Assembly: GCF_030384885.1 (NCBI RefSeq)
Contig: NZ_CP128613.1
Strand: one strand, 5' to 3'
DNA from: Escherichia coli
GTDB lineage: Bacteria > Pseudomonadota > Gammaproteobacteria > Enterobacterales > Enterobacteriaceae
Length of the DNA stretch: 64,000 bases
The notes beneath the pieces are model-generated. The model was given only the letters and a program-made list of their open reading frames with translations. It did not search any database and had not been told where the DNA came from. Positions 5,487 through 7,238 of the stretch are shown piece by piece. A program made the translations under genes and the position numbers. How positions within the stretch are numbered: position 1 is the stretch's first letter; every line of letters begins with the position of its first letter.

Positions 5487-7238
<1,752 letters not shown>

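Follow-up and report, generated by a model that had tools for sequence, protein, structure and literature searches.

The palindrome AATCAA-ATA-TTGATT, which lies just upstream of ulaG in this Escherichia coli genome, is in all likelihood the central dyad of the known ulaG-proximal operator of the repressor UlaR, formed at the junction of two adjacent UlaR sites. Operator control of the ulaG promoter by UlaR is already known, and the palindrome, flagged by eye, maps onto operators that were described in 2004. The significance of the result therefore extends little beyond bookkeeping, together with base-level coordinates for the two UlaR arrays, for both predicted core promoters and for a candidate CRP site in a divergent ula allele (Table 1). 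Our assignment to UlaR draws on indirect literature evidence and on comparative sequence evidence: the element lies in the divergent ulaG/ulaA region near ulaR, carries the recognition sequence expected of UlaR, belongs to a pattern of two operators per promoter and is conserved together with ulaR. Throughout, the window denotes the whole 64-kb stretch of DNA that was analysed.

Table 1 Features of the ula locus, in window coordinates
Feature	Position	Strand	Basis or remark
ulaA, ascorbate PTS IIC component	5487-6884	-	ORF list, K-12 annotation and NCBIfam equivalog; divergent from ulaG
Predicted ulaA -10, TAGAGT	6944-6949	-	Nearly invariant in 81 loci
Decoy-like site A2	6947-6966	-	Within the ulaA-proximal region
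ulaA-proximal operator array	6952-6986	-	Same design as the ulaG-proximal array; overlaps the predicted ulaA -35 and promoter spacer
Predicted ulaA -35, TTGTTG	6967-6972	-	17 bp upstream of TAGAGT
Decoy-like site A1	6972-6991	-	Within the ulaA-proximal region
Candidate CRP site TGTGACGCGACACGCA	6990-7005		Best TGTGA-N6-TCACA match in the spacer
Predicted ulaG promoter	7154-7182	+	-35 TTGCCT 7154-7159, 17-bp spacer, extended -10 TGtCAGGAT 7174-7182
20-bp UlaR site G1, GGATTAATCAAAACCAATCA	7179-7198	+	16/20 to the UlaR decoy; best in the window
ulaG-proximal operator array	7184-7218	+	Four pentamers, exact 10-bp spacing, orientation > > < <, dyad centre 7201
Reported palindrome AATCAA-ATA-TTGATT	7194-7208		Inner inverted half-site pair with its 5-bp spacer
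Inner half-sites	7194-7198 and 7204-7208		AATCA and TGATT; spacer 7199-7203
20-bp UlaR site G2, TGATTCAAATTGAACTATCA	7204-7223	+	15/20 to the UlaR decoy; second best
ulaG, L-ascorbate-6-phosphate lactonase	7239-8303	+	ORF list, K-12 annotation and NCBIfam equivalog
ulaR, DeoR-family repressor, proposed to bind the arrays	8411-9166	+	ORF list, K-12 annotation and NCBIfam equivalog

Pentamer arrays in the ulaG/ulaA spacer

The first-pass annotation placed a perfect 6-3-6 palindrome in the divergent ula control region, about 30 bp ahead of the ulaG start, and the description is accurate. Positions 7194-7208 read AATCAAATATTGATT, in which AATCAA is the exact reverse complement of TTGATT across the central ATA, and the symmetry stops at the arms (C at 7193 and C at 7209). 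Counting to the ulaG ATG at 7239 (MSKVKS...) gives 30 nt; the in-frame ATG at 7233 returned by the ORF finder is not the annotated start. UlaA, UlaG and UlaR were identified by their open reading frames, by the K-12 annotation and by NCBIfam equivalogs, and the ulaA/ulaG spacer spans 354 bp (6885-7238), with the ulaA start codon ending at 6884.

By itself, the perfect 6-3-6 form is not significant against chance. The window contains 33 such palindromes, at least one appears in 11.7% of shuffles of the 354-bp spacer (33% GC), and 67% of them have a 6-k-6 palindrome of some kind (k = 0 to 10). The core AATCA-N5-TGATT has a single occurrence in the window.

Around this core, the ulaG-proximal array consists of the pentamers AATCA at 7184, AATCA at 7194, TGATT at 7204 and TGAAC at 7214, the fourth being degenerate in E. 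coli. The ulaA-proximal array, read on the plus strand, consists of TTTCA at 6952, AATCA at 6962, AGATT at 6972 and TGATT at 6982, and the centres of the two arrays are 232 bp apart. When positions are scored by their matches, out of 20, to AATCA-N5-AATCA-N5-TGATT-N5-TGATT, the ulaG-proximal array reaches 18 and the ulaA-proximal array 17, while the next best position in 64 kb scores 14 and the maximum over 5000 shuffles of the spacer is 16. The earlier suggestion of a UlaR operator half-site thus stands as far as the operator element is concerned and falls as regards a single half-site, the palindrome holding the two inner half-sites of a four-half-site array.

The same sites emerge from a published recognition sequence. 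A UlaR decoy, TGATTAATCATGAACAATCA, is available (Wang et al., NAR 2021, Table S4). For ArgR, the same study built its consensus decoy on sites listed in RegulonDB; we infer that the UlaR decoy was likewise drawn from curated K-12 sites. G1, G2, A1 and A2 are the four best distinct decoy matches in both the K-12 spacer and that of the window, and they include the three highest-ranking matches of the entire 64-kb window. A majority consensus built from the four 20-mers reproduces the decoy in all of its columns (20 of 20), and no tie occurs in 18 of these. Judging from this agreement, the curated UlaR operators are almost certainly G1, G2, A1 and A2, and the palindrome is composed of the last pentamer of G1, a 5-bp gap and the first pentamer of G2.

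The 20-mers could also be taken as direct repeats. Such a model needs pentamers at 7179-7183, 7209-7213 and 7219-7223, all of which are poorly conserved, and we set it aside for the symmetric array, which is better supported. Nominally the outer pentamer of G1, the segment 7179-7183 in fact forms the end of the -10, and neither it nor the outer pentamer of G2 (7219-7223) appears to be conserved as a UlaR contact. On a comparative reading, the two operators at each promoter would together make up one symmetric four-pentamer array (> > < <).

Genomic SELEX found the only high-affinity UlaR target in the ulaG/ulaA spacer, at a resolution of the whole spacer only, along with a weak peak upstream of ulaR (Shimada/Ishihama). 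UlaR represses as a homotetramer on four operator sequences and is released as a dimer by L-ascorbate-6-phosphate; UlaR and IHF repress ulaABCDEF, CRP activates it, and the literature describes two UlaR operators per promoter. The primary work on the K-12 UlaR operators is reportedly that of Campos et al. 2004 (J Bacteriol 186:1720) and Garces et al. 2008 (Biochemistry 47:11424). In the former, each promoter is said to have two operators sharing a conserved sequence, and full repression reportedly requires both promoters together with IHF-assisted looping. We found no base-level UlaR sites in the secondary literature citing UlaR, and a full-text literature search with the operator strings matched only an unrelated fish paper. 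In a protein-occupancy study, UlaR was pulled down on sdaC promoter DNA and its purification for confirmation failed; this observation conflicts with the single-target picture from SELEX.

Conservation across Enterobacterales and competing readings

A scan of one genome per species covered 80 ulaG loci, from Escherichia, Citrobacter, Salmonella, Enterobacter, Klebsiella, Kosakonia, Buttiauxella, Hafnia, Serratia and others, and three distant loci, in Edwardsiella, Brenneria and Budvicia, were added through UlaR homologues of 73-75% identity. The ulaG-proximal array, about 54 bp ahead of ulaG, is present in all ula loci examined (87 of 87), from Escherichia to Edwardsiella, Brenneria and Budvicia, in which UlaR is 73-99% identical. 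The ulaA-proximal array is found in every locus whose upstream sequence is long enough (81 of the first 82, as well as the three distant loci), and in every locus with enough sequence the two arrays are the top-scoring positions upstream of ulaG. The first lies approximately 50-95 bp before the ulaG ATG and the second approximately 230-250 bp further, adjoining ulaA.

Within the arrays, conservation is concentrated in the pentamers. Over 84 unique ulaG-proximal arrays, the mean information is 1.62 bits in the pentamers and 0.72 bits in the spacers, with 1.7-2.0 bits in the TCA/TGA core columns and 0.4-0.8 bits in the columns of the central spacer. The arms are nearly invariant, and the same 84 arrays contain 49 distinct central spacers: C is the commonest base at 7199 (54 arrays, against 25 with T and 5 with A), and A at 7203 (45 arrays, against 23 with T, 13 with G and 3 with C). 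Among Escherichia genomes, variation near ulaG peaks in the five bases between the arms (AATAT in the window, CATAT in K-12, TATAT in IAI1, CACAT in O104:H4 and CAAAC in E. albertii), and the AATCA/TGATT arms are unchanged throughout. By this pattern of conservation, the 5-bp core is under strong selection.

The sixth base pair of the palindrome, A7199/T7203, is strain-specific, K-12 having C at 7199, so that its arm reads AATCAC. The perfect 6-3-6 form occurs in 14 of the 84 unique arrays and the perfect 5-5-5 form in 56, which is the 1-in-4 ratio predicted by chance and indicates that the sixth pair is unconstrained. These counts support a functional unit of 5-5-5 and not 6-3-6, and the perfect 6-3-6 symmetry is, on the comparative evidence, a conserved 5-5-5 core to which chance has added one base pair.

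Distances between the two arrays fall into a few classes. They measure 240-244 bp in 68 of 81 loci and 231-232 bp in 11 of 81, and 251 bp in Hafnia, Brenneria and Budvicia, with outliers at 226 bp in Edwardsiella and 246 bp in one other locus. The 231-232, 240-244 and 251 bp classes differ by about one helical turn. A Rayleigh test on ten distance classes, from loci that are related to each other, gave p of approximately 0.17, and helical phasing between the two arrays is suggestive only.

Several other readings of the palindrome can be weighed against this pattern. The first-pass annotation had allowed for a site of another regulator, and this alternative finds little support, the conserved bases not being features of the IHF or CRP consensus. 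In its general form, it would have a sugar-responsive or global regulator other than UlaR bind the AATCA arrays, with UlaR placed elsewhere in the spacer. The SELEX data leave room for such an arrangement, as they resolve UlaR binding only to the whole spacer, but we consider it improbable: the motif is confined in 64 kb to the two ula promoters, travels with ulaR across families of Enterobacterales and agrees in every column with the published consensus of the UlaR decoy, and the pattern of two UlaR operators per promoter known from the literature is the pattern seen. Of the specific candidates, CRP was discarded on the grounds that no TGTGA-N6-TCACA match with three or fewer mismatches overlaps 7194-7208. 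An IHF site at the palindrome is very unlikely, even though IHF takes part in ula repression and, in this strain, the core WATCAANNNNTTR finds its only spacer matches with at most one mismatch here, agreeing in 12 of 13 positions with 7194-7206 and again with the complementary stretch 7196-7208. The match needs the strain-specific A7199, where K-12 and 79 of the 84 arrays have C or T, and it would set the TTR element over the invariant TGA, which never fits. Moreover, AATCA/TGATT recurring four times at 10-bp spacing is not an IHF pattern, and a site that assists looping would be expected between the arrays, not inside one. An IHF site does not explain the conserved bases and was rejected.

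A palindrome arising by chance in AT-rich intergenic DNA and having no function of its own fits the abundance of such elements (33 perfect 6-3-6 palindromes in the window, and at least one in 12% of shuffled spacers) as well as the sixth pair, which occurs at the chance rate across species and is absent in K-12. It can hardly hold for the whole element, as the 5-bp arms are nearly invariant in 87 loci with freely varying bases between them, and share their register with the two outer pentamers as well as with the twin array at the other promoter. Conservation refutes the chance reading for the 5-5-5 core and confines it to the sixth pair and the central ATA. Equally remote is an RNA hairpin in the 5' untranslated region of ulaG that would affect translation or mRNA stability. 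The palindrome lies downstream of the predicted transcription start and would presumably be transcribed, but the predicted leader (7189-7250) folds at only -3.9 kcal/mol with z = +1.03, which is worse than its shuffles, and the stem of the palindrome is absent from the minimum-energy structure. The arms are conserved in sequence, without compensatory changes or covariation, and the same pentamers recur at ulaA upstream of its inferred transcription start. We rejected a regulatory hairpin in the 5' leader, with neither stability nor covariation in its favour.

Predicted core promoters and a proposed mechanism of repression

Upstream of ulaG, the cross-species promoter consensus is caTTGCaa-N17-(TG.)CAgtAT, with high information at TTGC, TG, A2 and T6, and these conserved positions are the ones important for sigma-70 recognition. 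A consensus promoter scan of 6850-7300 found no sigma-70 site; it missed the predicted, weak ulaG promoter because CAGGAT matches the -10 consensus at only 3 of 6 positions. Transcription of ulaG would start at approximately 7189-7190, which would place the array at about -6 to +29 and the palindrome at about +5 to +19. The ulaG-proximal array abuts the conserved -35/extended -10, a position that looks typical of a repressor.

At ulaA, the predicted -10 and -35 elements suggest a transcription start near 6937, and the second array would then cover -15 to -49. The candidate CRP site is centred approximately 61 bp upstream of this putative start, and its TCACA half is invariant across genera.

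The predicted ulaA leader contains a GC-rich hairpin on the minus strand at 6902-6929 (CCGGGUGU/AUACCCGG), within a fold of -18.4 kcal/mol. Other genera have a hairpin in the same place with quite different sequences (CUGAGC...GCUCAG; CACACAGGG...CCCUCGUGUG), and 52 of 53 unique ulaA leaders fold below -8 kcal/mol, although the z-score of the window leader is only -0.81. A consensus fold computed on a MAFFT alignment of the ulaA leaders yielded nothing. The hairpin may be a 5' stabiliser or a regulatory stem.

From these positions and from what is published on UlaR, a mechanism can be proposed. Four UlaR pentamers, AATCA and its inverted form TGATT, would lie on one face of the DNA at 10-bp intervals over 7184-7218, each perhaps contacted by one DNA-binding domain. 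The ulaG array begins directly after the -10, and would cover the inferred start together with about 29 bases of the initial transcript. Without ascorbate, UlaR would occupy this array and its twin over the ulaA -35, 232 bp away, where the bound repressor would cover the -35 and the promoter spacer and adjoin CRP. RNA polymerase would thereby be blocked at both promoters, presumably by steric occlusion, and the two occupied arrays probably cooperate through an IHF-assisted DNA loop. L-ascorbate-6-phosphate would convert UlaR into dimers, which would leave the DNA.

This mechanism has close relatives. The K-12 ulaG/ulaABCDEF UlaR operators represent the same locus, the same genes and the same repressor, with two sites per promoter, four in total, a shared conserved sequence and ascorbate-6-phosphate as the inducer; nothing essential differs here, this strain carrying a rare allele with two substitutions in the array spacers. 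GlpR, the repressor of the E. coli glp regulon, is a DeoR-family, sugar-phosphate-responsive tetramer that acts on several helically phased operators overlapping promoters, with cooperative binding and looping. It shares with UlaR the DeoR family, the tetrameric state and tandem phased operators, whereas its half-sites resemble TGTTCGA and UlaR forms a separate NCBIfam equivalog. E. coli DeoR, acting at deoO1, deoO2 and deoOE, is of the same family and represses via DNA loops between separated palindromic operators; it is an octamer, with more DNA-binding domains than a single operator needs. Its operators are single 16-bp palindromes hundreds of bp apart, in contrast to the two four-pentamer arrays 232 bp apart at ula.

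The comparison of eight conserved pentamers with the four DNA-binding domains of a tetramer turns the stoichiometry of the UlaR loop into a concrete, testable question. We entertain, only tentatively and as the less probable case, a repressed state with eight UlaR subunits, in view of the eight conserved pentamers against the published picture of four operators bound by a single tetramer. Should every pentamer be read by one winged-helix domain, either two tetramers would each bridge both promoters, or one tetramer on each array would be joined to the other as an octamer, as in E. coli DeoR, and the palindrome would then be the dyad that seats one dimer.

The ula allele of this strain and its surroundings

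The window carries an uncommon form of the locus. Of 5161 matching complete E. coli genomes, 19 carry the exact 74-bp haplotype round the palindrome, and only 16 complete genomes have a spacer with 99% or higher identity over its whole length. DNA identity to K-12 is 93.2% for ulaA, 93.6% for ulaG and 95.4% for ulaR. The middle of the spacer (7005-7154) has 30 mismatches to K-12 in 150 bp, or approximately 80% identity, compared with four mismatches in the 204 bp of the promoter-operator blocks (6885-7004 and 7155-7238). Only two differences from K-12 fall within 7155-7238, C to A at 7199 and G to A at 7209, both in array spacers, and the 20 pentamer bases of each array show no change. Being unchanged from K-12 against a substantially divergent background, the operator pentamers are under purifying selection; the perfect palindrome is accidental, as a single spacer substitution at 7199 completes its symmetry. 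As a minor variant of the tentative eight-subunit arrangement, the rare A7199/A7209 allele could conceivably alter the affinity of UlaR or IHF in this lineage.

The substitution of G to A at 7209 also creates a second perfect palindrome, TTCAA-A-TTGAA, over pentamers 3 and 4 (7206-7218). K-12 reads TTCGAATTGAA at these positions, and this palindrome looks accidental. The ula locus as a whole (5487-9166) is unusually divergent for E. coli, and this allele may have been brought in by recombination from another Escherichia lineage.

Downstream of ulaG, an inverted repeat, CCGGATGGCG...CGCTATCCGG, occupies 8315-8350 just 3' of the stop codon and resembles a REP element or a terminator; at the same position, other genera have a classic GC hairpin followed by a T-run. 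The inverted repeat and these hairpins after ulaG suggest that ulaG and ulaR are separate transcription units. The ulaG-ulaR spacer contains a strongly conserved segment upstream of ulaR (8350-8410), with a likely ulaR promoter in which GTAGTA at 8350-8355 (TTAGTA in most genera) and TATCAT at 8374-8379 are separated by 18 bp. Upstream of ulaR, two pentamers resembling those of UlaR are spaced 20 bp apart, TTTCA at 8367 and AATCA at 8387, and may be behind the weak UlaR SELEX peak found there (Shimada/Ishihama). If so, ulaR, a gene usually described as constitutive, would be subject to mild autoregulation.

In E. coli MS15047, ulaG is annotated as a pseudogene with an internal stop, and the predicted -10 has a 1-bp deletion (CA-GAT). 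In the equivalent of 7177-7195, substitutions (T to C and C to A) have also altered the bases directly before pentamers 1 and 2. These changes in the promoter and the array are consistent with relaxed selection after the loss of ulaG.
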